From NCBI GenBank assembly GCA_964016885.1, contig CAXHJY010001348.1, positions 1-64,000 on the forward strand: 64,000 bases of DNA. The letters are read 5' to 3'. Below are positions 17,061 through 43,218 of this stretch, one piece after another. Both the position numbers and the translations under genes were made by a program. The notes under the pieces were generated by a model. It worked only from the letters and a program-made list of their open reading frames with translations. It searched no databases and was not told the origin of the DNA. Position 1 is the stretch's first letter. Each line of letters opens with the position of its first letter. Source of the stretch: Eledone cirrhosa (lineage: Eukaryota).

Positions 17061-18039
17061 TGAGGTGTGGTGTGACGTGACAAGACACTATACCAGACTG
17101 TGAAATGCTGAGTCAATGGATTTATTAAATAAGACAGGTGGAGGGGGGGGGGGGGGGGTTGACACGTGAGCTGGTCGTTACGATGGCGACCGGTCTTTGT
17201 TTATTAATGGTCCACTTGGTTTAGGGAGAGAGAGGGAGAGAGACTGTGTATGTGTGTGTGTGTGTGTTGGAGAGAGAGAATGTGTGTTGGAGAGAGAGAG
17301 AGAGTGTGTGTGTTGGAGAGAGAGTGTGTGTGTGTGTGTGTTGGAGAGAGAGAGAGTGTGTGTGCGTTGGAGAGAGAGTGTGTGTTGGAGAGAGAGAGTG
17401 TGTGTGCGTTGGAGAGAGAGAGTGTGTGTGTGTGTGTTGAAGAGAGAGAGTGTGTGTGTGTGTTGGAGAGAGAGAGTGTGTGTGTGTGTTGGAGAGAGAG
17501 AGAGTATGTGTGTTGGAGAGAGAGAGAGAGTGTGCGTGTGTGTGTTGAAGAGAGAGAGTGTGTGTGTGTGTGTTGGAGAGAGAGAGAGTGTGTGTGTGTT
17601 GGAGAGAGAGAGAGAGTGTGTGCGTGTGTGTGTTGGAGAGAGAGTGTGTGTGTGTGTGTGTTGGAGAGAGAGAGAGTGTGTGTTGGAGAGAGAGAGAGAG
17701 TGTGTGTGTGTTGGAGAGAGAGAGTGTGTGTGTTGGAGAGAGAGAGAGTGTGTGTGTGTGTGTGTGTGTGTTGGAGAGAGAGAGGAAATGAGTGTGCTGA
17801 AGAGAGAGAGAGGTAGAGAATGAGAGTGTTGGAGAGAGGGCGAGACAGAATGAGAGAGAGGGTGCGAAAGACAGCGAGAAAGAGTATGGTAGATGGTGGG
17901 AGAATTGAAGGGAAAGAAAGAGGAGAGAGAACAAAGGAATAAGAGAGAGAATGTAGACAGATTGATAGGTGAACAGATCGAATTTCTGATGAACCTGTGA
18001 TTAGACAGGTGAAACTCTAGAATAACAAGAGTCATCCAT

Positions 18040-18073
<34 letters not shown>

Positions 18074-18242
18074 AAGGATAAAAAGAACGATTGATTATTC
18101 CTTCATTGCATATTATAATAGATTGAAGTGAAAACAACTGGTGCGTGTGGTTCTTATTGGCAACATGACCCTCCCAAAGTATAACAATATCGGTTTCAAC
18201 ACACGTTTTCAGATAAAGAATCTTGCTAAACAAATTCAGAAA

Positions 18243-18277
<35 letters not shown>

Positions 18278-18427
18278 AATTTTGAGTATATGTTGGTTGT
18301 ATACCAACACCTCAGTATGCAGATTGGAGCACTCGACGAAGTGCGCAGGTTGGTTTGGTTACTCCGGAATAATGTAAAATAAAATAAAATAAATAAGTCA
18401 AATGTTTACAATTTGGCTTCGTTTATT

Positions 18428-18482
18428 ACTGCTATATATATTCCGGTGACAGCTATCTTTGGTTGTGACCTCTTCAGGCAGT
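18428..18482 (-). ncRNA. Hammerhead ribozyme (family D) with core mutation GAAA>GGAA
   Basis: ACTGC-CTGAAGA-GGTCACA..TGTCACC-GGAA-TATATA-TA-GCAGT; intact twin at 24410-24464. Confidence 0.7.
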
Positions 18483-18523
18483 CCTCTGGTAAATGAAATA
18501 ATTATCTTATGTTGTTTATTACA

Positions 18524-18589
<66 letters not shown>

Positions 18590-18743
18590 ATAACCAGTTA
18601 TCGTTTCAGGTAATCCAGTTAGAGGTTGTGAGTACTCTGTACTATGGATAGTTTTAACGCACGGCGTTGTTTGACTCAACAAGAGGTTTCCTTAGTTAGG
18701 TGGCGAGTTAGCAAGAATTCCCATTCAGGTCATTCTTGGAGTA

Positions 18744-18928
18744 ATAATTGTTTCTATTTTAGGCACAAGGCCAGCAATTATCCAGTGCATTACTGGTACT
18801 TTATTTTATCGACCCCGTAAGGATGAAAGGCAAAGTCAACCTCGGCGGGATTTGAACTCAGATCGTAAAGGGACGTAACGATGCTAGAAAGCATGGCGTC
18901 CGACCCTCTACTGATACTGCCAATCCAC
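18744..18928 (-). mobile_element. tRNA-derived SINE
   Basis: Reverse complement of the 15267 family; twin at 24684-24870. Confidence 0.85.
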
Positions 18929-18974
18929 GTAATTGATTGTGATGGTCGGCTGTACAAAAAGGGTTTTATTTACA

Positions 18975-19087
18975 ATATTAACAATTGTTTCATTGATTAG
19001 GTGAGTCTAAAGGCCGCTAATCACTCGAAATTGCGTCACTCGGCCTTAAATACAGTGTGTGTGTGTCTGATCAAATCATCGGAATAC
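18975..19087 (-). ncRNA. Hammerhead-like motif with long stem II insert and CCGATGA core
   Basis: GTATT-CCGATGA-TTTGATCAG..CTAATCAAT-GAAA-CAATTG-TT-AATAT; flanked by 24-bp inverted repeats 18942-18966/19088-19111; twin at 24917-25029. Confidence 0.55.
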
Positions 19088-19153
19088 AAACCCTTTTGTA
19101 CAGCTGACCATGTTATTCTTCACTCTTTCACTGTGTATATATATATATATATA

Positions 19154-19592
19154 TACGATATTAAATAAATGGAAACTATATTTATAAAACCATATTTATT
19201 TCATTATATATATTTCAGGGATATCATATTAAAAATATGGTATGCCTTCTTCAGACAAAATACAATATAAACAGTCTTATAAATAGATAGATTTGACATA
19301 CCTTACAACTTCAACTTTCATTTAAATCAACTTTTTAAATGAAAGTTGAAGTTGTAAGGTATGTCAAATCTATCTATTTATAAGACTGTTTATATTGTAT
19401 TTTGTCTGAAGAAGGCATACCATATTTTTAATATGATATCCCTGAAATATATATAATGAAATAAATATGGTTTTATAAATATAGTTTCCATTTATTTAAT
19501 ATCGTAAATATACTCCAAATACTTGTTGAGTGCTTTTATATCAGTTATAAATATTTACTCGTTGTAACCCAACAATTTAAATAAAACTTTGC
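19154..19592 (+). mobile_element. Foldback element (family C): 173-bp inverted arms, 7-nt loop, a hammerhead in each arm
   Basis: Palindrome 19154-19506; TTTTGT-CTGAAGA(19406)-stemII-GAAA(19444)-TATATA-TA-ATGAAA; twin at 25094-25532. Confidence 0.85.
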
Positions 19593-19617
19593 ATATATAT
19601 ATATATATATATATATA

Positions 19618-19955
19618 TGTTGGCTGCAACTAGATTTCGAGTAATGCCATCGCTTGATACGCAAGCATGAACATCACGGACATGGCTTTTTAGTCCAGCT
19701 AGGGACTTGCCTATGGCCAGCAATACCACGCATCGCAAAAAACTGTCACATATCAAGCGATGCCTGTGCTTGAAGTTTTTTTAAGTGAGGAAAGGCTTTG
19801 CAAGGGGCCAATCCCTCTCTCTGAACATCAAATGCATTTACCCAAAAAGAAGAACTGGTCTACATCATTGGATGCAAACCAAGTTGCAGGTTTTATATCT
19901 GAGTGACCTTCTCCTAGAGAGATGTCTTAATGAAGACTAGGGGTCTCTTGCTCCA
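19618..19955 (-). mobile_element. RTE-derived bipartite non-autonomous element (fragment)
   Basis: Homologous to 49690-50297; retains LAGLKSHVR finger remnant; twin at 25555-25890. Confidence 0.6.
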
Positions 19956-19997
19956 CAAAAAATAAAAATAATATATATATATTTTTTTAAAAAAAGG

Positions 19998-20215
19998 TCA
20001 ATCGACTTTCGTCAAATCGAGCCGAAGAAACAATGTTTCTGTCAGTATTTCCAATTGCTAATACTATCTATCGGTCGCAACTCCAGGTAGAAGGAGCAAC
20101 GTGAAATAAAGTGTCTTGCTCAAGGACATAACGCATCGCCCGGTCCAGGAATCGAACTCACAACCTCACGATTGTGAATCCAATTCTCTAACCAATCAAC
20201 CGCACGCCTTCACAA
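19998..20215 (-). mobile_element. Second tRNA-derived SINE family (CORE-like)
   Basis: Minus strand GTGAGTTCGATTCC B box then GTCCTTGAGCAAGACACTTTATTTCAC; copies at 25933-26151 and 45515-45715. Confidence 0.75.
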
Positions 20216-21169
20216 TATGTATGTGTGTATATATATACACACATACACACACACACACACACGTGTGCGTGAGCCCCGAGTTCAATCAGGGGTAACCACG
20301 GTAAGTAAGGTACTCAATACATTAGTAGAGTATATGCAACAACATTTAATATAAGGTCTGGAACTGTTTCATTAGAAGGAAATCATCAGGAAATATATAA
20401 GTAAATCGAAATAACAAAGCAAATGACACAGTACATTGAAGAAATATATTAGTTTAACGCTTGATCTAGCAGATAAAGAGTCATAACGTATTGGACATGA
20501 AATGTTACAGGTATATACAAACACAAACACGTTTAAGAAATGATGTGTGACTTACCTACATATATATATATTTCATGTTCGATGGTATTGTGGTAAGGAA
20601 CAAGATGGACCATAACGCACCAGCGTACTCAATCCTTAGGGTAGTAGAGTGGGTAATAGGAAAAAGTATGACCCCGACGGCAGAGTTCAAGCCGTTTCGA
20701 CGGCTATTTCTGGACTAGTTTTGGGGGGTTATTTCACAGCTAGTTTATGTTGATTACCGACATGTGGAAGTGATTGTTTATAATAATTGTTTATACGTTA
20801 GGCACAAGGCCAGCAATTACCCAGTGTATTACTGGTACTTTATTTTATCGACCTCGTAAGGATTATAATAATAGTTTGATATAGGCCTAAGGCCAACAAT
20901 TTTTTTTTTTGGGGGGGGGGAGTCGATTCAATCGACCCCAGTGCGTTACTGGTACTTTATTTCATCGACACCGTAATGATGCAAGGCAAAGCTAACCTCT
21001 AATCATTACGGTGTCGATAAAATAAAGTACCAGGAACATACTGGAGTCGATTTAATCAACTTTCCGAAAGCGAGCTTGTCGTAACATTATCGAAGAAATG
21101 CGTTGTGTTTACATATGTCTCCGTTTCTGTGTGTACATTTTAACGACTTGCAGACATGTATATATATTG

Positions 21170-21219
<50 letters not shown>

Positions 21220-21301
21220 TGTATCCCAGGTTCAATCGGGAGTAACAACAGTAAGTAAGGTACAGTTCTAGTCCTGTAGAAGCTATTTCTATATTAAACA
21301 A

Positions 21302-21332
<31 letters not shown>

Positions 21333-21559
21333 TATATATTTAATATAGAAATGGCTTATATATATATATTACAAGGGTTATAGAAAACATACCCCTTTTT
21401 GTGTTTGCCTCTCTATATACTGTATTATGAAGAGTCCGGTAATTCTTCCTTGAGCTCATGAAATTACAGGACTTAACGCGAGTCTTCTCCGTTTTTTTTC
21501 AATTGATACACACATATATATATATATATATACACAAACATACTTGGCGTATTATTATG

Positions 21560-21680
21560 GTTCCTTACGTGTAAGTAAGCCGGCAACCGTATAATGCTCG
21601 TTTGGTAATGACGTTGGTTGATTGCATGTAGAAGTAACGAAGCCAAAAATACGATGACGTCCCGCCATTTTGAAAATCAA
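21560..21680. promoter_or_regulatory. Promoter/first-exon-like island (duplicated at ~27500-27615)
   Basis: TGACGT at 21609 and 21655, YY1 CCGCCATTTT 21662; minus strand AAAATGGCG opens 33 codons ending at AC|GTAAGG. Confidence 0.35.
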
Positions 21681-22159
21681 AGTTTTCGAAGAAGTTATGC
21701 AAAAATCTAAATTCTTGACTATTAAGCCGCTGTTTCGAATCTAAGTTAATGAATAGTCCTCGGTTTTAATGTTACTAAATTAATTTTACAGAAATTTAAT
21801 CATCCACTATTTATTTCCGTAATTTATTTCTTCATAATTAATAATTTCTTGTGTTTAAATTGATTTAATACTTTTAACTTTATTTTATATTGGCTTAAGA
21901 CGTTCACTTCTCAATCATTAGGTCTAATACCCCCCCTCCCCCATATATATAGATTTATATATATATATATATAACGAAGGAAGTGTGATAAGGAACAAGG
22001 TGGACCATAACGCACTAGAGTACTCAATACTTAGCGTAGTAGAGTGGGTAATAGGAAACTGTTCAAGACCCCGACGGCAGAGCTCAAGCCAGAAATAGAC
22101 GTCTAAACGGCTTGAGCTCTGCCGTCGGGGTCTTGGACACTTTCCTATATATATATATA

Positions 22160-22700
22160 TGAAGTTCAGAACTGGAAAGTGCTTGCTTTGAGGAGAGGTA
22201 AATAGAGAGGACATGTTAAGGAAGGCTTCAGAATGTTTGAAGAGAGACGTCTTGACCATGAAAAACTTAAACGTCAGCTAGAAAAAGGCCACAGTATGAA
22301 CCTCAATAAGAACATAGGGAGCTGGATTTGTGAGGTATGTGGTCATTTACTGCTCTCTAAATCCGGGTACATCACTCATTCAAAATCACATAAAAAGCCA
22401 ACTGTATGTAGCTCTATTCCTCCACCAATGCTAGGTGAGGCAACATGTGTGGCGTGCAAAAAGATCTGCAAATCAACTTCTGGTCTTAAAAGGCATATGT
22501 GGGTACATAAGGAAGGCACCCTACAAAGCGACCCAATCAATTCAATAGAGGGCACATCTTTTGACTGTCACATTTGCTGCAGACCGTGCAAATCTGCAGC
22601 TGGACTTAAAAGCCACCTAAGAAGCCATGAATGGACGTCTGGAGTTGATGGGAGTGCATAGGGAGACAGCAATCATCTGCAAAGATGAAGCAATCGCCAT
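22160..22700 (+). mobile_element. RTE LINE 3' fragment encoding three C2H2 fingers
   Basis: FEERRLDHEKLKR then CEVC..HSKSH, CVAC..GLKRHMWVH, CHIC..GLKSHLRSH, same layout as the end of the 8949 ORF; twin at 27987-28537. Confidence 0.85.
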
Positions 22701-22708
22701 ATAAATAC

Positions 22709-22901
22709 TAAGGGCGGTGTATTGGCAGTATCGGTAGAGGGTCGGACGCCATGCTTTCCAGCATAGTTACGTCCCTTTACGATCTGAGTTCAAATCCCGC
22801 CGAGGTTGACTTTGCCTTTCATCCTTACGGGGTCGATAAAATAAAGTACCAGTAATGCACTGGGTAATTGCTGGCCTTGTGCCTAAAGTAGAAACAATTA
22901 T
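22709..22901 (+). mobile_element. tRNA-derived SINE
   Basis: Full-length copy of the 15267 family; twin at 28547-28738. Confidence 0.85.
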
Positions 22902-23014
22902 ATAGAATGCATGGCAAACTGGCTTATACCTTCTAAGGTACCCAGAATTTCTTTTATATATATATATATACTCCCCCTCACACCCTCGGAACTCTTTTCC
23001 TGCCCCCTTTTCTC

Positions 23015-23045
23015 CTGATGAAGGGCTTATCCCCGAAACATCGTC
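23015..23045 (+). ncRNA. Hammerhead core without a recognisable stem I
   Basis: CTGATGA-AGGGCTTATCCCC-GAAA-CATCG-TC; twin at 28852. Confidence 0.45.
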
Positions 23046-23127
23046 CCCCACCCCCCACTCTCAAGCATGAACCTAATACTAACACTTTGTACTGCACTCT
23101 TCGCTATTGTTTTTATTTTCTGTTTTA

Positions 23128-23158
<31 letters not shown>

Positions 23159-23190
23159 ACTGAGGATGTGTCTCTGTCTCTCTCTCTCTG

Positions 23191-24033
23191 TGTGTGTGTG
23201 TGTGTTGGAGAGAGAGAATGTGTGTTGGAGAGAGAGAGAGTGTGTGTGTGTTGGAGAGAGAGTGTGTGTGTGTGTGTGTTGGAGAGAGAGAGAGTGTGTG
23301 TGCGTTGGAGAGAGAGAGAGTGTGTGTGCGTGTGTGTGTTGGAGAGAGAGAGTGTGTGTGCGTTGGAGAGAGAGAGAGTGTGTGTGTGCGTGTGTTGAAG
23401 AGAGAGAGTGTGTGTGTTGGAGAGAGAGAGAGTGTGTGTGTGTTGGAGAGAGAGAGAGTGTGTGCGTGTGTGTGTTGAAGAGAGAGAGTGTGTGTGTGTG
23501 TTGGAGAGAGAGAGAGTGTGTGTGTGTTGGAGAGAGAGAGTGTGTGTGCGTGTGTGTGTTGGAGAGAGAGTGTGTGTGTGTGTGTGTTGGAGAGAGAGAG
23601 AGTGCGTGTGTGTGTTGGAGAGAGAGAGAGTGTGTGTGTGTGTGTGTGTGTGTGTTGGAGAGAGAGAGTGTGTGTGTTGGAGAGAGAGAGAGTGTGTGTG
23701 CGTGTGTGTGTTGGAGAGAGAGAGGAAATGAGTGTGCTGGAGAGAGAGAGGTAGAGAATGAGAGTGTTGGAGAGAGAGAGGAAATGAGTGTGCTGGAGAG
23801 AGAGAGGTAGAGAATGAGAGTGTTGGAGAGAGGGCGAGACAGAATGAGAGAGAGGGTGCGAAAGACAGCGAGAAAGAGTATGGTAGATGGTGGGAGAATT
23901 GAAGGGAAAGAGAGAGGAGAGAGAACAAAGGAATAAGAGAGAGAATGTAGACAGATTGATAGGTGAACAGATCGAATTTCTGATGAACCTGTGATTAGAC
24001 AGGTGAAACTCTAGAATAACAAGAGTCATCCAT

Positions 24034-24067
<34 letters not shown>

Positions 24068-27000
24068 AAGGATAAAAAGAACGATTGATTATTCCTTCAT
24101 TGCATATTATAATAAATTGAAGTGAAAACTACTGGTGCGTGTGGTTCTTATTGGCAACATGACCCTCCCAAAGTATAACAATATCGGTTTCAACACACGT
24201 TTTCAGATAAAGAATCTTGCTAAACAAATTCAGAAACGAAATATATATATATATACATAAATTTTGAGTATATGTTGGTTGTATACCAACACCTCAGTAT
24301 GCAGATTGGAGCACTCGACGAAGTGCGCAGGTTGGTTTGGTTACTCCGGAATAATGTAAAATAAAATAAAATAAATAAGTCAAATGTTTAAAATTTGGCT
24401 TCGTTTATTACTGCTATATATATTTCGGTGACAGCTATCTTTGGCTGTGACCTCTTCAGGCAGTCCTCTGGTAAATGAAATAATTATCTTATGTTGTTTA
24501 TTACATAACTATATATATATATATAGGATAACAAGGTAGGTATCGTTTCAGGTAATCCAGTTAGAGGTTGTGAGTACTCTGTACTATGGATAGTTTTAAC
24601 ATAAGGCGTTGTTTGACTCAACAAGAGGTTTCCTTAGTTAGGTGGCGAGTTAGCAAGAATTCCCATTCAGGTCATTCTTGGAGTAATAATTGTTTCTATT
24701 TTAGGCACAAGGCCAGCAATTATCCAGTGCATTACTGGTACTTTATTTTATCGACCCCGTAAGGATGAAAGGCAAAGTCAACCTCGGCGGGATTTGAACT
24801 CAGATCGTAAAGGGACGTAACGATGCTAGAAAGCATGGCGTCCGACCCTCTACTGATACTGCCAATCCACGTAATTGATTGTGATGGTCGGCTGTACAAA
24901 AAGGGTTTTATTTACAATATTAACAATTGTTTCATTGATTAGGTGAGTCTAAAGGCCGCTAATCACTCGAAATTGCGTCACTCGGCCTTAAATACAGTGT
25001 GTGTGTGTCTGATCAAATCATCGGAATACAAACCCTTTTGTACAGCTGACCATGTTATTCTTCACTCTTTCACTGTGTATATATATATATATATACGATA
25101 TTAAATAAATGGAAACTATATTTATAAAACCATATTTATTTCATTATATATATTTCAGGGATATCATATTAAAAATATGGTATGCCTTCTTCAGACAAAA
25201 TACAATATAAACAGTCTTATAAATAGATAGATTTGACATACCTTACAACTTCAACTTTCATTTAAATCAACTTTTTAAATGAAAGTTGAAGTTGTAAGGT
25301 ATGTCAAATCTATCTATTTATAAGACTGTTTATATTGTATTTTGTCTGAAGAAGGCATACCATATTTTTAATATGATATCCCTGAAATATATATAATGAA
25401 ATAAATATGGTTTTATAAATATAGTTTCCATTTATTTAATATCGTAAATATACTCCAAATACTTGTTGAGTGCTTTTATATCAGTTATAAATATTTACTC
25501 GTTGTAACCCAACAATTTAAATAAAACTTTGCATATATATATATATATATATATGTTGGCTGCAACTAGATTTCGAGTAATGCCATCGCTTGATACGCAA
25601 GCATGAACATCACGGACATGGCTTTTTAGTCCAGCTAGGAACTTGCCTATGGCCAGCAATACCACGCATCGCAAAAAACTGTCACATATCAAGCGATGCC
25701 TGTGCTTGAAGTTTTTTTAAGTGAGGAAAGGCTTTGCAAGGGGCCAATCCCTCTCTCTGAACATCAAATGCATTTACCCAAAAAGAAGAACTGGTCTACA
25801 TCATTGGATGCAAACCAAGTTGCAGGTTTTATATCTGAGTGACCTTCTCCTAGAGAGATGTCTTAATGAAGACTAGGGGTCTCTTGCTCCACAAAAAATA
25901 AAAATAATATATATATATTTTTTTAAAAAAAGGTCAATCGACTTTCGTCAAATCGAGCCGAAGAAACAATGTTTCTGTCAGTATTTCCAATTGCTAATAC
26001 TATCTATCGGTCGCAACTCCAGGTAGAAGGAGCAACGTGAAATAAAGTGTCTTGCTCAAGGACATAACGCATCGCCCGGTCCAGGAATCGAACTCACAAC
26101 CTCACGATTGTGAATCCAATTCTCTAACCAATCACCCGCACGCCTTCACAATATGTATGTGTGTATATATATACACACATACACACACACACACACACGT
26201 GTGCGTGAGCCCCGAGTTCAATCAGGGGTAACCACGGTAAGTAAGGTACTCAATACATTAGTAGAGTATATGCAACAACATTTAATATAAGGTCTGGAAC
26301 TGTTTCATTAGAAGGAAATCATCAGGAAATATATAAGTAAATCGAAATAACAAAGCAAATGACACAGTACATTGAAGAAATATATTAGTTTAACGCTTGA
26401 TCTAGCAGATAAAGAGTCATAACGTATTGGACATGAAAAGTTACAGGTATATACAAACACAAACACGTTTAAGAAATGATGTGTGACTTACCTACATATA
26501 TATATATTTCATGTTCGATGGTATTGTGGTAAGGAACCAGATGGACCATAACGCACCAGAGTACTCAATCCTTAGGGTAGTAGAGTGGGTAATAGGAAAA
26601 AGTATGACCCCGACGGCAGAGTTCAAGCCGTTTCGACGGCTATTTCTGGACTAGTTTTGGGGGGTTATTTCACAGCTAGTTTATGTTGATTACCGACATG
26701 TGGAAGTGATTGTTTCTAATAATTGTTTATACGTTAGGCACAAGGCCAGCAATTACCCAGTGTATTACTGGTACTTTATTTTATCGACCTCGTAAGGATT
26801 ATAATAATAGTTTGATATAGGCCTAAGGCCAACAATTTTTTTTTTTTGGGGGGGGGGGAAGTCGATTCAATCGACCCCAGTGCGTTACTGGTACTTTATT
26901 TCATCGACACCGTAATGATGCAAGGCAAAGCTAACCTCTAATCATTACGGTGTCGATAAAATAAAGTACCAGGAACATACTGGAGTCGATTTAATCAACT

Positions 27001-27094
27001 TTCCGAAAGCGAGCTTGTCGTAACATTATCGAAGAAATGTGTTGTGTTTACACATGTCTCCGTTTCTGTGTGTACATTTTAACGACTTGCAGAC

Positions 27095-27152
<58 letters not shown>

Positions 27153-27235
27153 CTGTATCCCAGGTTCAATCGGGAGTAACAACAGTAAGTAAGGTACAGT
27201 TCTAGTCCTGTAGAAGCTATTTCTATATTAAACAA

Positions 27236-27268
<33 letters not shown>

Positions 27269-29016
27269 TATATATTTAATATAGAAATGGCTTATATATA
27301 TATATTACAAGGGTTATAGAAAACATACCCCTTTTTGTGTTTGCCTCTCTATATACTGTATTAGGAAGAGTCCGGTAATTCTTCCTTGAGCTCATGAAAT
27401 TACAGGACTTAACGCGAGTCTTCTCCGTTTTTTTCAATTGATACACACATATATATATATATATATATACACAAACATACTTGGCGTATTATTATGGTTC
27501 CTTACGTGTAAGTAAGCCGGCAACCGTATAATGCTCGTTTGGTAATGACGTTGGTTGATTGCATGTAGAAGTAACGAAGCCAAAAATACGATGACGTCCC
27601 GCCATTTTGAAAATCAAAGTTTTCGAAGAAGTTATGCAAAAATCTAAATTCTTGACTATTAAGCCGCTGTTTCGAATCTAAGTTAATGAATAGTCCTCGG
27701 TTTTAATGTTACTAAATTAATTTTACAGAAATGTAATCATCCACTATTTATTTCTGTAATTTATTTCTTCATAATTAATAATTTTTTGTGTTTAAATTGA
27801 TTTAATACTTTTAACTTTATTTTATGTTGGCTTAAGACGCACTAGAGTACTCAATACTTAGCGTAGTAGAGTGGGTAATAGGAAACTGTTCAAGACCCCG
27901 ACGGCAGAGCTCAAGCCAGAAATAGACGTCTAAACGGCTTGAGCTCTGCCGTCGGGGTCTTGGACACTTTCCTATATATATATATATGAAGTTCAGAACT
28001 GGAAAGTGATTGCTTTGAGGAGAGGTAAATAGAGAGGACATGTTAAGGAAGGCTTCAGAATGTTTGAAGAGAGACGTCTTGACCATGAAAAACTTAAACG
28101 TCAGCTAGAAAAAGGCCACAGTATGAACCTCAATAAGAACATAGGGAGCTGGATTTGTGAGGTATGTGGTCATTTACTGCTCTCTAAATCCGGGTACATC
28201 ACTCATTCAAAATCATATAAAAAGCCAACTGTATGTAGCTCTATTCCTCCACCAATGCTAGGTGAGGCAACATGTGTGGCGTGCAAAAAGATCTGCAAAT
28301 CAACTTCTGGTCTTAAAAGGCATATGTGGGTACATAAGGAAGGCACCCTACAAAGCGACCCAATCAATTCAATAGAGGGCACATCTTTTGACTGTCACAT
28401 TTGCTGCAGACCGTGCAAATCTGCAGCTGGACTTAAAAGCCACCTAAGAAGCCATGAATGGACGTCTGGAGTTGGTGACTGTTGATGGGAGTGCATAGGG
28501 AGACAGCAATCATCTGCAAAGATGAAGCAATCGCCATATAAATACTAAGGGCGGTGTATTGGCAGTATCGGTAGAGGGTCGGACGCCATGCTTTCCAGCA
28601 TAGTTACGTCCCTTTACGATCTGAGTTCAAATCCCGCCGAGGTTGACTTTGCCTTTCATCCTTACGGGGTCGATAAAATAAAGTACCAGTAATGCACTGG
28701 GTAATTGCTGGCCTTGTGCCTAAAGTAGAAACAATTATATAGAATGCATGGCAAACTGGCTTATACCTTCTAAGGTACCCAGAATTTCTTTTATATATAT
28801 ATATATACTCCCCCTCACACCCTCGGAACTCTTTTCCTGCCCCCTTTTCTCCTGATGAAGGGCTTATCCCCGAAACATCGTCCCCCACCCCCCACTCTCA
28901 AGCATGAACCTAATACTAACACTTTGTACTGCACTCTTCGCTATTGTTTTTATTTTCTGTTTTAACTATAATATATATATATATATATATATAACTGAGG
29001 ATGTGTCTCTGTCTCT

Positions 29017-29025
<9 letters not shown>
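23191..29025. repeat. Tandem segmental duplication, copy 2
   Basis: As copy 1, with a ~110 bp deletion at ~27839 and a 10 bp indel at ~28475. Confidence 0.95.
24410..24464 (-). ncRNA. Minimal type-I hammerhead ribozyme (family D, intact core)
   Basis: ACTGC-CTGAAGA-GGTCACAGC..GCTGTCACC-GAAA-TATATA-TA-GCAGT-AATAAA. Confidence 0.8.
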
Positions 29026-29092
<67 letters not shown>

Positions 29093-32322: not shown

Positions 32323-32790
32323 AAAAAAGAGGAAAAGGATATAAAGATATAAAGATATAAAGATATAAAGATATATATATAAGGAATTTTATTTCCTTAA
32401 AGTCGAGACGTTGAATAATAATTGAAATTACGTTGTATTCAATATAATTAAACTAACGTGTACTGTAATAGGGGTTTCTCTGGTCAACAAACACAGGTCC
32501 TTCGTCTTAGGGTGACCAAACTGAGAATTGTTGGCCTATTTGCTCTCTCTCTCTCGTTTTTTCTTTCTTCATATTCTTATTCTTCTTGTTCTTCTTGTCG
32601 AATGAAATTAAAAGTAGCTTTTAAGCGCAAATCTTTTTGATGATGTTTTTTTTTGTTGTTGTTGTTGTTTTTTTGTTTTTTTTTTGCTGCTACTACTGTT
32701 GCTTTTCATGATCAAAATAACGATGATGGTGGTGGTGGTGGTGGTGGTGATGGTGATGGTGGTGAAGTTGACTCAGTGGTTATGTCTGTG

Positions 32791-32823
<33 letters not shown>

Positions 32824-32984
32824 CACATATACACGCATACACGTATCGGGGGGAGCAATGAGATGAGAATGACGTAACAATTAACACGTGACTTCCGGAT
32901 CTCCTAATTCTAAAGTCTACCCCCCCCCCCGCATCTCAGTCAACAAAACAACAATAATAATTATTATTTCTATTATAAGCAGAA

Positions 32985-33180
32985 AGCCAGCAATTTCAAG
33001 GGGAAGGGAAAGTTGATTAAATCAACCCCAGTACATTACTGGTACTTTATTTCATCGACCCCCGTAAGGATGAAAGGCAAAGCTAACCTCGGCGGGATTT
33101 GAACTCAGACCATAAAGGGCCGTAACTCTTTGCTGCAAAGCATGGCGTCCGACCCCTCTACCGATACTGCCAATCCACCC
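32985..33180 (-). mobile_element. tRNA-derived SINE
   Basis: Reverse complement of the 15267 family. Confidence 0.85.
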
Positions 33181-34330
33181 AACCCTAACCCTTACTAGAA
33201 GATTAGTAATGATGGATAGAGATGTGTGATGGCCGTCATGTCACATATATTGACCACCTGGTGAAGGACACTGGCATGAAATATGTCCCAGGAACTGAAG
33301 AGACCAATGATAGCGATCTGAAATAAGGATTCTATGTCCTTGATCCTGATGAGAGTTCAAGTATGAATAAATAACGTATGTAGTTTATGTTAATGATGAT
33401 GATGTTGGCGAGGGAGCAAGGGCCGTTGTTCGTAGAGATAATTTGGTGGCTGGGAGTATGAGGCACCAAATTTACTCTGCTTGTTTTTTTCCTCCAGGGT
33501 TTACTTTAAGGAAATTTTAGAACTTTATGAATCTTATCGGTATGTGTCATGAAGCAGTGTTTGATATTCTCTGAGTCTAATAAGCATAGACATTTTCTTT
33601 CTGTTTTTTAACATTTTACGAGTGTTTTAAGTCTGTTCGCTATCATTTACCACGTAAAAATATATAATGTTTAGTTCAAAATGTAAGCTTACTGCACAAT
33701 TAGATTTAGAACCAAACGAACGAATGTCCACTCCATGTTTAAATAATTGCGATTCTCTTCTCAATTCAAACGAACAACAGGAAAAAATATTGCGCTTATC
33801 ATCTTCTCCCCTTACTACTTCACCCGATGGTTTTCCGCGGCAGACGACAGCACAGATCCTACAGCCGCTGTCACTGCTATTGTTGATGATGATGAGGATG
33901 ATGTTGGTCGTGGGTGGAGTCGGGTCTGCGCCAAATAAATTCAAACGACAGCAGTAAATAAATATATCACGATTTTTTTTTTTTTTTTTGTTGCTTCCGA
34001 GGGTGGTTTTTCTACGGTGACTCAAGATAGATAACCACTGCTGCTGTTGTTGCTGTTGCTGTCTTTGTTGTTGCTGTTGATGAAATTAGGGTAATGGGGA
34101 GATATTGTTTCTACGTTATTATTACGCCAAATTTACTCTTGAAGGGTGCGGAATGCGGGGTAGATGTTCTCGTCTGCTACTCAATGAAATTCAATATGTA
34201 ACCATTGTTAGTGTTACTGATACTGTTGCTGTTGATACTGATGCTGGTGTCCAGGTTGATGTACATGTTGATTTTGATCATTTGTCCAGTTGGGCAGCGT
34301 TGTTGTTGCTCTTACGCAACATTTATTATT

Positions 34331-34506
34331 TTATTTGGAGTCATCATCTTTAGTAGCATTGTCATCATCTTCCTCACCTCCACCCGATTCCGATCTGTGG
34401 AGGTACACCTCGTGGGCCAGGATACAGATGCTCAGCACTAACATGACTAAAGTCATGAAGAACAGGAATTCTGGGAAGGAGCCCATCATAATTCTGCTAG
34501 ATGAAC
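34331..34506 (-). CDS. Terminal exon A: small single-pass membrane peptide (MMGSFPEFLFFMTLVMLVLSICILAHEVYLHRSES..., 52 aa from ATG 34489)
   Basis: Acceptor TTTTCTTTCCGGTAG| at 34507, hydrophobic ~20-aa segment, acidic tail, stop at 34331; frame-preserving paralog at 36728-36888. Confidence 0.6.
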
Positions 34507-34579
34507 CTACCGGAAAGAAAATAATCCGTAATGTTTTCTTGAATATCCACATAGGGTTTATGTTTAGAAAATGTTAAGG

Positions 34580-36505
34580 ACAACACAGGAGGGCACAGGG
34601 GCTGGTACAGGAGGGGACAGGGGCTGGTACAGGAGGGGACAGGGGTTGGTACAGGGGCTGGTACAGGAGGGCATAGGGGTTGGTACAGGAGGGCATAGGG
34701 GCTGGTACAGGAGGGCACAGGGACTGGTACAGGAGGGCACAGGGGCTGGTACAGGAGGGCATAGGGGTTGGTACAGGAGGGCATAGGGGCTGGTACAGGA
34801 GGGCACAGGGACTGGTACAGGAGGGCACAGGGGCTGGTACAGGAGGGCACAGGGGCTGGTACAGGAGGGCATAGGGGCTGGTACAGGAGGGCATAGGGAC
34901 TGGTACAGGAGGGCATAGGGGCTGGTACAGGAGGGCACAGGGGCTGGTACAGGAGGGCACAGGGACTGGTACAGGAGGGCACAGGGGCTGGTACAGGAGG
35001 GCACAGGGGTTGGTACAGGAGGGCATAGGGGTTGGTACAGGAGGGCATAGGGGTTGGTACAGGAGGGCATAGGGGTTGGTACAGGAGGGCATAGGGGCTG
35101 GTACAGGAGGGCATAGGGGTTGGTACAGGAGGGCACAGGGGCTGGTACAGGAGGGCACAGGGACTGGTACAGGAGGGCACAGGGGCTGGTACAGGAGGGC
35201 ACAGGGGTTGGTACAGGAGGGCATAGGGGTTGGTACAGGAGGGCACAGGGGTTGGTACAGGAGGGCATAGGGGCTGGTACAGGAGGGCACAGGGGCTGGT
35301 ACAGGAGGGCACAAGATGGTACAGAATGGCACAGGGTGGTTCGGGATGGTACAGGGTGGCACAGGATGGTACAGAATTGTACAGGATGGTACAGGGAGGT
35401 ACAGGATGGCACAGGGTGGTACAGGTTGGAATAGGATGGCCCAAGATGGCACAGGATGGCACAGGGTGGCACAGAGTGGTACAAGGCGGTACAGGATGGT
35501 ACAGGATGGTACAGGATGGCAGAGGAGGGCACAGGGTAGAATAGGGTGGCACAGGATGGCACAGGATGGCAAAGGATGGAATAGGGTGGTACAGGGTGGC
35601 ACAGGATGGCACAGGAGGGCACAGGATGGTACAGGGTGGTACAGGATGGCACAGGGTGGCACAGGATGGTACAGGAGAGCACAGGGTGGTACATGATGGT
35701 ACAGGATTGTAAGGGTCTTACAGGGTGGTTCAGGGGGGTACAGGGTGGCACAGGGGGCACAGGATTGTACAGGATGGTACATGAGGGCAAAGGGTGGAAT
35801 AGGGAGGTACAGGATGGTTCAGGGTGGTACAGGGTGATACAAGATGGTACAGGGTGGCACGGGATGGTACAGGGTGGTACAGAATGGTACAGGGTGGTAA
35901 GGAGGGTACAGGGTGGCACAGTGTGGTTCCGGATGGTACAGGATGGCACAATGTGGTACAAGATGGTACAGGATGGTTCAGAGTAGCACATGGTGGTAGA
36001 TGATGGCCCATGGCAGCACAGGATGATACAGGGCGCTACAGGGTGGTACAGAGTGGCACAAGAGGGCACAGGGTTGTACAGGATGGTACAGGAGGGCACA
36101 GGAGGGCAAAGGGTGGAATAGGGTGGTACAGGATGGTTCAGAGTGGTACATGGTGATACAAGATGGTACAGGGTGGTACAGGGTGGTACAGGGTGGCACA
36201 GGCTGGCACAGGGTGGCACAGGCTGGTACAGGGTGGTTCAGAGTGGTACATGGTGATACAAGATGGTACAGGGTGGTACAGGGTGGTACAGGGTGGTACA
36301 GGATGGTTCAGAGTGGTACATGGTGATACAAGATGGTACAGGGTGGTACAGGGTGGTACAGGGTGGCACAGGCTGGTACAGGGTGGTACAAAATGGTACA
36401 GGGTGACACAACATGGCACAGGGTGACACAACATGGCCAAGAGTGGCACAGGGTGACGCAAAATGGCATAGGGTGGCATATGGTGCACAGGACGGCATAG
36501 GAAGG
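34580..36505. repeat. GC-rich minisatellite: 22-bp GGTACAGGAGGGCACAGGGGCT units (to ~35310) then diverged 10-bp GG(T/C)ACAGG(A/G)T units
   Basis: Direct reading. Confidence 0.95.
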
Positions 36506-36727
36506 TCCAGGATGATGCAGTGTGGGTTTGTGTGTAACAAAACAGTTATAACGAAAACAAAGAAATTTACTCTTCGAGGGTGCGGGATGCGGGGTAGATG
36601 TTCTCGTCTGCTACTCAATGAAATTCACTATGTAGCCACTGTTACTGTTGCTGTTGATACTGATGCTGGTGTTCCATGTTGATCATTTGTTTCGTTGAGC
36701 AGCGCTGTTGTTGCTCTTACGCCAAAT

Positions 36728-36888
36728 TCATTGGGCGACTTGCTGCTCGTCGGCATTATCTTTCGACGTTTCCGATCTGTGGACGTACACCTCGTGGGCC
36801 AGGATACAGAGGGTCAATATTAACATGATTATAGTTATGATGAACAGGTATTGTGGGAATTCCTCCAAGATCATTCTGCCAGCTGAAC
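36728..36888 (-). CDS. Terminal exon B: paralogous single-pass membrane peptide (MILEEFPQYLFIITIIMLILTLCILAHEVYVHRSET..., 48 aa from ATG 36874)
   Basis: Same acceptor at 36889, shared CILAHEVYxHRSE motif, stop at 36728, shared downstream sequence (36565-36670 vs 34130-34250). Confidence 0.6.
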
Positions 36889-36959
36889 CTACCGGAAAGA
36901 AAATAATCCGTAATGGTTTCTTGAATATCCACATAGGGTTTATGTTTAGAAAATGTAAG

Positions 36960-37830
36960 GGCGGTACAGGAGGGCACAGGGGTTGGTACAGGAGGGGTCA
37001 GGAGGGCACAGGGTGGCACAGGAGGGCACAGGGTGGCATAGGGTGGCACAGGATGGTACAGAACGGCACACGAGGGCACAGGATGGCACGTGGTGGCACA
37101 GGATGGCACATGGTGGCACAGGATGGTACATGATGTTACAGGATAGTACAGGGTGGCATAGGATGTTACAGAATGCTACAGGAGGGCACAAGGTGGTACA
37201 GGAGGGCACATGATGGCGTAGGAGGGTACAGGGTGACAAGAAGTGATACAGGATGCTACTGAATGTTACAGGAAGGCACAGGATGGCACAGGATGGCACA
37301 GGGTGTCACAGGATGGTACAGAATGGCACAGGGTTGCACGGAACGGTACAGGAGGGTACAGGATAGCACAGGGTAGCACAGGAGGGCACAGGAGGGCACA
37401 TGGTGGCATAGGGTTGCATAGGGTGGTATAGGATGGTACAGGGTGACACAGGATGGTACAGGATGGCACAGGAGGGCACAGGGGGGCACATGGTGGCATA
37501 GGACGACACAGGATGGTACATGATGTTACATGATAGTACAGGGTGGCACAGGATGGTACAGAATGGTACAGGAGGGCACAGGGTGATACAGGAGGGCACA
37601 GGATGGTAGAGGAGGGCACAGGAGGACAGGACAGGGTGGGACAGGATGGCACAGGGTGGTACAGGATGACACATGATGGTACAGGATGTTACAGGATAGT
37701 ACAGGGTGGCACAGGGTGGCACAGGGTGGAATAGGGTGGTACAGGATGGTACAGGTTGGCCCAGGGTGGAATAGAGTGGAACAGGATGGTACAGGATGAT
37801 AGAGGATGGTAGAGGATGGCACAGGATGGT
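36960..37830. repeat. 10-bp GG(T/C)ACAGG(A/G)T minisatellite
   Basis: Direct reading; same satellite as precedes exon A. Confidence 0.95.
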
Positions 37831-42193: not shown

Positions 42194-42520
42194 AATATAT
42201 AAATAAATATATATATGTATATATATATATATAAATATCCCACAACTCCTTGTGAAGTCGTATAGGCAACGTCATACAACGTTTCTAGGGCACTTTTAAA
42301 CCTGGCGAAACCCAACCCTCTCCAGGTCTGAACAAGCCGATTTTTTTCTATAGAGGAAGAATCGAGCCCAGTACTGGACTGGTACCTTTCCTTTAACGAC
42401 CTCGAAAGGATGAAAGGCAAAGTTGACCCCGGATGGATTTGAACTCAAAGCACGCAATGAGAAGGTACGAATACTGTAAAACATTCTATCCAACGTATAT
42501 ATATATATATATATATATAT

Positions 42521-42727
42521 ATAGGAACGAGTAGAACCCCGACGGCTGAGCTCAAGCCGTTTCGACGGCTAATTCTGGACTAAACATTTAGTCCAGAATT
42601 AGCCGTCGAAACGGCTTGAGCTCAGCCGTCGGGGTCCTACTCGTTCCTATTACCCACTCTACTACCCTAAGTATTGAGTACTTTGGTGCGTTATGGTCCA
42701 CCTAGTTCCTTACCACATTTCCTCCGT

Positions 42728-42773
<46 letters not shown>

Positions 42774-42975
42774 AACGAGTAGGACCCCGACGGCTGAGCT
42801 GAAGCCGTTTCGACGGCTAATTCTGGACTAAACATTTAGTCCAGAATTAGCCGTCGAAACGGCTTGAGCTCAGCCGTCGGGGTCCTACTCGTTCCTATTA
42901 CCCACTCTACTACCCCAAGTATTGAGTACTTTGGTGCGTTATGGTCCACCTGGTTCCTTACCACATTTCCTCCGT

Positions 42976-43015
<40 letters not shown>

Positions 43016-43218
43016 GGAACGAGTAGAACCCCAACGGCTGAGCTCAAGCCGTTTCGACGGCTAATTCTGGACTAAACATTTAGTCCAGAATTAGCCGTCG
43101 AAACGGCTTGAGCTCAGCCGTCGGGGTCCTACTCGTTCCTATTACCCACTCTACTACCCCAAGTATTGAGTACTTTGGTGCGTTATGGTCCACCTAGTTC
43201 CTTACCACATTTCCTCCG

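Follow-up and report, generated by a model that had tools for sequence, protein, structure and literature searches.

We analysed a 64,000-base window of the genome of the cephalopod Eledone cirrhosa (assembly GCA_964016885.1), namely bases 1-64,000 of the 71,635-base contig CAXHJY010001348.1. The genome comprises 3.0 Gb. On its minus strand the window contains two tandem copies, A and B, of a short exon that very likely encodes a peptide with one hydrophobic segment. Most of the contig consists of simple repeats, short interspersed repeats or remnants of long interspersed nuclear elements (LINEs); about 19.5 kb was left unmasked in the first repeat mask, which was partial and in which the LINE stretches were set by hand. 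The parts of the two copies follow each other in the same order: a minisatellite, a 68-base intron end, an acceptor, an open reading frame and a shared downstream stretch. The last base of the acceptor TTTTCTTTCCGGTAG, identical in both copies, is at 36,889 in copy A and at 34,507 in copy B, and therefore the exons start at 36,888 and 34,506, respectively. The intron ends including the acceptor (36,889-36,956 in A, 34,507-34,574 in B), delimited by sequence comparison and acceptor scoring, differ at one of 68 bases. A repeat scan placed a minisatellite with a 10-base unit upstream of A (36,966-37,829) and another upstream of B (34,585-36,489), the latter including an expanded 22-base unit at 34,651-35,425. 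A sequence-only reading of this DNA had described two paralogous minus-strand units with acceptors at 36,888 and 34,506 and a single difference around the acceptors; both units were found at these places, and the single difference was recovered in the intron end.

The coding part of exon A (36,728-36,888) starts with two bases of a split codon and ends with the stop codon TGA, and the ATG at 36,874 opens a frame of 48 amino acids. The coding part of exon B (34,331-34,506) has the same phase, ends with TAA and, from the ATG ATG at 34,489, comprises 52 amino acids. Both ATG-started frames are thus shorter than 100 residues, and each holds one hydrophobic 19-residue window. Membrane helices are predicted at 36,794-36,850 in A and at 34,412-34,468 in B (best 19-residue hydropathy windows, with means of 2.58 and 2.54, respectively). 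An N-A-T glycosylation sequon is present in B and missing from A. DNA search and protein search of the genome found only these two copies of the exon. Four further weak matches (E 0.16-9.5) look, on reading, like chance hydrophobic or simple-repeat frames and were rejected. Read contigs from three runs of one sample span A and B separately and show no differences, a support that is not independent because the sample may be the assembled one.

The divergence between the copies is unevenly distributed. Besides the single difference in the intron end, A and B differ at 23 of the 120 bases and 18 of the 40 residues of a 40-codon core, and at 14 of 165 bases in the shared downstream stretch. The exon diverges more than its flanks (23/120 versus 15/233 bases, P 0.0005). 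When the split first codon was included, the previously reported count of 41 codons with 18 differing and 23 identical residues was reproduced, and the block CILAHEVYxHRSE is fixed, being common to A and B. Only one codon of the 40-codon core differs synonymously alone (TTG/CTG). The earlier description of the divergence as almost purely non-synonymous is nevertheless overstated. Multi-hit codons add synonymous steps, 2.5 of 23 by path averaging and up to 4, and when the same substitutions were placed at random, about 13% of the placements likewise gave one synonymous-only codon or none. The acidic tails vary in length and, as had been noted, the length differences keep the frame. After one gap of five codons, the last ten codons and the stops (TGA/TAA) can be aligned in frame with 18 matches in 33 bases (P 0.008), which corresponds to 45% tail divergence.

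Conservative change is confined to the proposed frame (P about 0.0003), and we therefore regard this frame as very likely coding. The mean BLOSUM62 score of the changed residues is +1.22 in the proposed frame and between -0.12 and -1.8 in the other five. Random placement of these substitutions on matching bases was simulated 20,000 times each way, and about 40% of the trials were stop-free. The two nulls averaged -0.1 and -0.2, and +1.22 was reached with P 0.0004 and 0.0001, values that stand before a factor of six for the frames. Open plus-strand frames across both exons were rejected, as they imply radical changes (mean BLOSUM -1.22). The codon-position skew of the substitutions (13/4/6) gave P 0.054 when taken alone. 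With generic splice-site weights, the acceptor scored 6.9, which is rank 8 among 3,381 minus-strand AGs and falls within the 4.6-10.4 span of all nine Cys-loop receptor exon acceptors scored in the same genome. The frame test and the acceptor rank support the earlier proposal of real coding exons, and we consider it highly probable that both copies are functional coding exons. Each copy might alternatively be read as one exon of 68 and 73 residues, respectively, opening with an in-frame ATG that lies 16 codons above the acceptor. We do not favour this reading because the added region differs at only 1 of 68 bases, compared with 19% in the exon, and contains the acceptor.

Selection on the pair was assessed by the ratio of non-synonymous to synonymous substitution rates (dN/dS). 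Over the 40-41 codons, dN/dS was 2.3-2.8 by counting (Fisher P 0.07-0.10, or P 0.33-0.40 on the most synonymous paths) and 6.8-30 by likelihood (P 0.04-0.07, or P 0.02-0.03 with kappa fixed at 3). Using the downstream stretch as a neutral clock gave 3.5 (range about 1.9-6.5, P 0.0006), an estimate that no longer holds if the flanks are under constraint or have been converted. Non-synonymous sites are 22% divergent compared with 8.5% downstream (P 0.004), and synonymous sites equal the downstream level (P 0.72, about 28 sites); such a combination would be expected if a fairly recent duplication had been followed by roughly a dozen replacements in excess. Diversifying selection, which the sequence-only reading had proposed, is therefore suggested, but not shown, by the core codons (P 0.02-0.10); P 0.0006 is reached only on the neutral clock, and support is lost when the tails are included (P 0.40). 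The intron end is more alike than predicted from the downstream stretch (P 0.018), and the flanks may have undergone gene conversion.

The copies appear to end differently. The downstream stretch that A has in common with B (36,563-36,727, minus strand) is probably 3′ untranslated. An AGTAAA hexamer (36,571) with a T-rich run behind it closes the stretch and is a candidate proximal polyadenylation site. In B the hexamer is present without the T-rich run, and the sequence continues into 2 kb of repeat-poor DNA (32,380-34,330, minus strand) with an AATAAA at 32,393, which is probably a long 3′ untranslated region. Of the 2-kb bin below B, 80% is unmasked, and none of the other 34 bins exceeds 43%, although the bin edges were chosen to fit and the mask is partial. 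Only B has a strong donor-like site (34,372-34,380, minus strand; GT at 34,377, score 7.2); if used, it would give an exon of 129 bases with symmetric phase. Visual inspection of the minus strand at 33,990-34,140 and about 33,477 showed degenerate internal repeats of the block shared downstream, with GAGTAAATTTGG occurring twice.

Upstream of the exons, the single-copy stretch 46,695-46,940 (minus strand) is a candidate non-coding exon, with strong donors (GT at 46,754 and 46,713) and no ATG before them. Five donors on the minus strand of the contig score at least 7, and two of them lie in this stretch, 41 bases apart; two such donors fell in one stretch in 0.17% of 3,000 local shuffles. When the three strong upstream donors were joined to the exon, in all three cases an in-frame stop preceded and the exon ATG was the first within the 60 upstream bases joined. 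Codons 5-7 read ATG ATC TTG in A and ATT ATG ATG in B; a start is thus retained in both copies, and the base at -3 is A in either case. Within the 35 kb upstream, the unmasked sequence was scanned with the generic splice weights and the partial mask, and no coding exon of matching phase was listed; DNA searches with long queries, aimed at upstream exons or at an adjoining contig, were dominated by repeats.

Three other sites were noted in this region. The stretch 51,360-51,500 (minus strand) is the end of a degenerate microsatellite; it carries a strong donor (51,395, score 7.0) and constitutes a second candidate non-coding exon. At 45,060-45,190 (minus strand) a CAG acceptor-like site is followed by a weak donor (3.7), with one open frame between them whose phase does not fit A or B. 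Besides a TATA-like word and a short inverted repeat, the single-copy stretch 47,695-47,910 contains TGACGTCA; it is a possible promoter on either strand.

Our preferred interpretation, held tentatively and at somewhat less than even probability, is that the tandem exons are alternative last exons of one gene, and that each would yield a single-pass membrane microprotein that stands alone, of 48 residues from A and 52 from B. About 10 kb upstream, a non-coding exon with its end at 46,755 or 46,714 would be spliced to one of the two acceptors. One promoter would feed two competing identical acceptors, leading to a proximal (A) or a distal (B) ending. If A is used, the transcript would end at the AGTAAA of A; if A is skipped, it would contain B with the 2-kb 3′ untranslated region. 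Translation would begin at the ATG within the exon. Should these steps hold, we see, by analogy, about an even chance that the peptides are accessory subunits of a membrane protein (for example a channel, pump or transporter), which they would contact through the fixed CILAHEVYxHRSE block, while replacements favoured by selection in the helix, at the N-terminus and in the acidic tail would tune the two forms differently. The duplication, the frame and the motifs are observed, whereas the splicing, start site, topology and partner of both peptides are what we infer in this model.

Several observations weigh against it. The two changes that precede the ATG (A/S and G/S) are conservative first-position swaps, as expected if this region is translated. 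The donor cluster at 46,695-46,940 was chosen after looking, and its chance probability over roughly 70 like-sized stretches is about 0.1; the lack of an ATG before the donors has P 0.15 when taken alone, and we found no strong acceptor (best 1.8) and no promoter tied to this candidate. The contig stops at 71,635, 35 kb upstream of the exons, and its end may lie inside a long intron. The fitted edges of the bin below B also count here. With regard to selection, for most models the dN/dS from codons alone does not significantly exceed 1 (P 0.04-0.10, whether by counting or with an estimated kappa), dN/dS including the tails is 1.6 (P 0.40), and no significant clustering of the changed residues on a helix face was detected (P 0.11). 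Finally, among 236 tandem-exon substitutions in humans, 77 are C-terminal and only one spans the whole protein (PMC9741552); the whole-protein exon of our model would correspond to that one case of 236.

The closest competitor is that A and B are alternative last exons of a larger membrane protein, to which they would contribute a linker, the anchor in the membrane (or the last helix) and a short tail, the upstream coding exons being off the contig or missed. We consider this a real possibility, if one clearly below even. It would explain the phase 1 split-codon start, the frame that is open from the first base and the conservative A/S and G/S replacements ahead of the ATG. Octopod introns are usually long, and the contig stops at 71,635. 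C-terminal tandem-exon substitutions are common and often involve membrane helices (PMC9741552). The scan of 35 kb upstream with no matching coding exon and the ATG kept in both copies speak against it, as do the lack of a match to any longer protein (0 of 104 and 0 of 36 candidates), which is weak evidence, and the failed identification of the helix as Cys-loop receptor M3 or M4 (see below). On balance the evidence slightly favours stand-alone peptides over exons of a larger protein. In another reading, which we judge improbable, B lies inside a larger protein as a membrane exon of 129 bases closed by the donor at 34,377, and A is a donor-less copy that reads on to a stop and yields a tail-less or decoy form. 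The donor score of 7.2 (one of five such minus-strand sites), the position of the donor where the A/B likeness drops and the symmetric phase of the exon agree with it. However, the three unmasked acceptors scoring at least 4 below 34,300 are not credible (one opens a 9-residue frame, two lead into simple repeats), the sequence below B resembles a 3′ untranslated region, and the tails can be aligned in frame to a common stop.

The replacement excess could also arise without positive selection, through drift of one copy or through older copies whose flanks were gene-converted. The confidence range of the codon-only dN/dS extends to about 1, the intron end is too alike for the downstream prediction, and tandem copies that are closer in their homogenised non-coding flanks than in a divergent exon are documented for the red/green opsins (PMC3924837). 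Drift should, however, not yield changes so conservative; the synonymous divergence of the core equals the downstream level with no peak; and the opsin model itself still has selection keeping the exon differences. Unlike in the opsins, the unit here is a single one of 0.4 kb, and synonymous divergence in the core is not raised. We regard this explanation as not probable. Still harder to accept, and in our view very improbable, is that the duplicated sequence is non-coding, with the frame and the hydrophobic stretch due to chance. None of the protein libraries searched yielded a relative, and the codon-position skew alone is marginal, yet the frame-specific conservative change, the strong acceptor and the frame-keeping length differences of the tails are at odds with chance.

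The peptides belong to no family that we found, and they appear to be new. Pfam yielded only sub-threshold matches of the exon peptides to DUF2721 and TMEM62_C, NCBIfam no family, and 1.84 billion protein representatives no match at E 0.001. In a protein collection whose extent of cephalopod coverage is not known, 0 of 104, 0 of 4 and 0 of 36 candidates matched. The best PDB matches (E 0.18-2.1) were all generic helices, the best Atlas values (0.77 and 0.80) were at chance level, and the predicted complex of A with B scored 0.02. The motif LAHEVY occurred in no paper, and literature searches on octopus micropeptides and on novel genes, covering titles and the starts of abstracts with supplements outside their scope, returned nothing on the locus. 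Possible likenesses to ionotropic glutamate receptor M4, tetraspanin, OST4, nicastrin and glycosylphosphatidylinositol-type anchors gave no Pfam match, short hydrophobic queries being weak and no dedicated profile having been used.

A presumed likeness of the exon helix to M3 and M4 of nicotinic receptors failed in tests with profiles built from the genome's own receptors. An M3 or M4 exon of a Cys-loop receptor (nicotinic acetylcholine or chemotactile type) was rejected, since 56-427 of 500 block shuffles reached the observed score in all eight tests. The profiles comprised M3 sets of 12, 2 and 10 sequences and an M4 set of 21 in which one exon occurred twice; from 30 loci, no more than 2 canonical M3 segments were retrieved by the M3 patterns. 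None of the 113 PF02932 matches in the genome lies on the contig of the exon pair. Elsewhere, at 23.6-23.9 Mb of G000:C11 (L063-L071), about 20 PF02932 matches are clustered, with long open frames mostly of 383-431 residues; they are single-exon Cys-loop genes, presumably of the chemotactile-receptor type.

The earlier comparison with regulins and KCNE proteins holds as far as the architecture is concerned, and the sequence features of these families are absent. Membership in the regulins (phospholamban, sarcolipin, sarcolamban) was not supported: neither peptide contains a tryptophan, Q or E precedes the helix, and there is no Pfam match. KCNE membership was likewise not supported, with no Pfam match and no KCNE chain among PDB matches up to E 10. 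KCNE proteins are, moreover, much longer than the 48-52-residue exon peptides. Drosophila sarcolamban and the regulins resemble the pair in being small single-helix membrane peptides, two per locus (PMC11475943; bioRxiv 10.1101/2020.07.19.211243). The E. cirrhosa pair lacks their WLL/tryptophan and the basic residue at the helix start, and has a polar tail of 21-26 residues. Whereas sarcolamban is bicistronic and redundant in those accounts, the pair has separate acceptors and 45% of its core residues differ. KCNE and nematode MPS proteins are similar in being small and single-pass, with paralogues tuned by helix swaps (the KCNE triplet), and canonical KCNE genes are not reported in invertebrates (bioRxiv 10.64898/2026.04.28.721385). 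The arrangement itself, tandem alternative homologous last exons, is of a known kind. As in C-terminal tandem duplicated exon substitution (PMC9741552), the exons are adjacent, homologous and of equal phase, each with an acceptor and a stop, and show conservative changes and a membrane helix. Unlike the mostly ancient events described in that paper, the duplication looks recent (about 9% downstream divergence) and shows excess replacement.

Taken in its fullest form, the preferred model would describe a lineage-specific gene in which a recently duplicated whole-protein exon acts as a splice switch between two orphan microproteins, their helices driven apart by positive selection; the two would form a new family of subunits accessory to a channel, pump or receptor of cephalopods. 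We think this complete picture unlikely. Single-helix microproteins are readily missed by annotation, and in other animals such proteins tune pumps and channels. If the model is true, a cephalopod pair for which no relative was found, combining a fixed juxtamembrane block with a fast-changing helix, would offer a two-way comparison for finding the partner and the key residues. If the exons are instead anchors of a larger protein, the locus would represent a recent tandem duplication of a last exon with selection on the membrane helix, which would be less surprising.

The remainder of the window is largely repetitive. A tandem duplication of about 5.9 kb (17,251-23,251 and 23,189-29,086; 95-97% identity) consists mostly of repeats. 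A long open frame at 8,952-10,870 (minus strand), which we take to be a LINE-type reverse transcriptase with C-terminal zinc-finger-like motifs, has similar zinc-finger-like fragments at 22,206-22,658 and 28,033-28,482 (plus strand). A 150-base repeat at 45,281-45,430 has at least 39 copies at 99% identity elsewhere in the genome and is therefore the end of a young mobile element. At 62,000-63,200 (plus strand) lies a broken retroelement-like fragment that presumably resembles a restriction-like-endonuclease retrotransposon. Three copies of a 244-248-base unit at 42,496-43,263 hold a palindromic element that recurs across the window.

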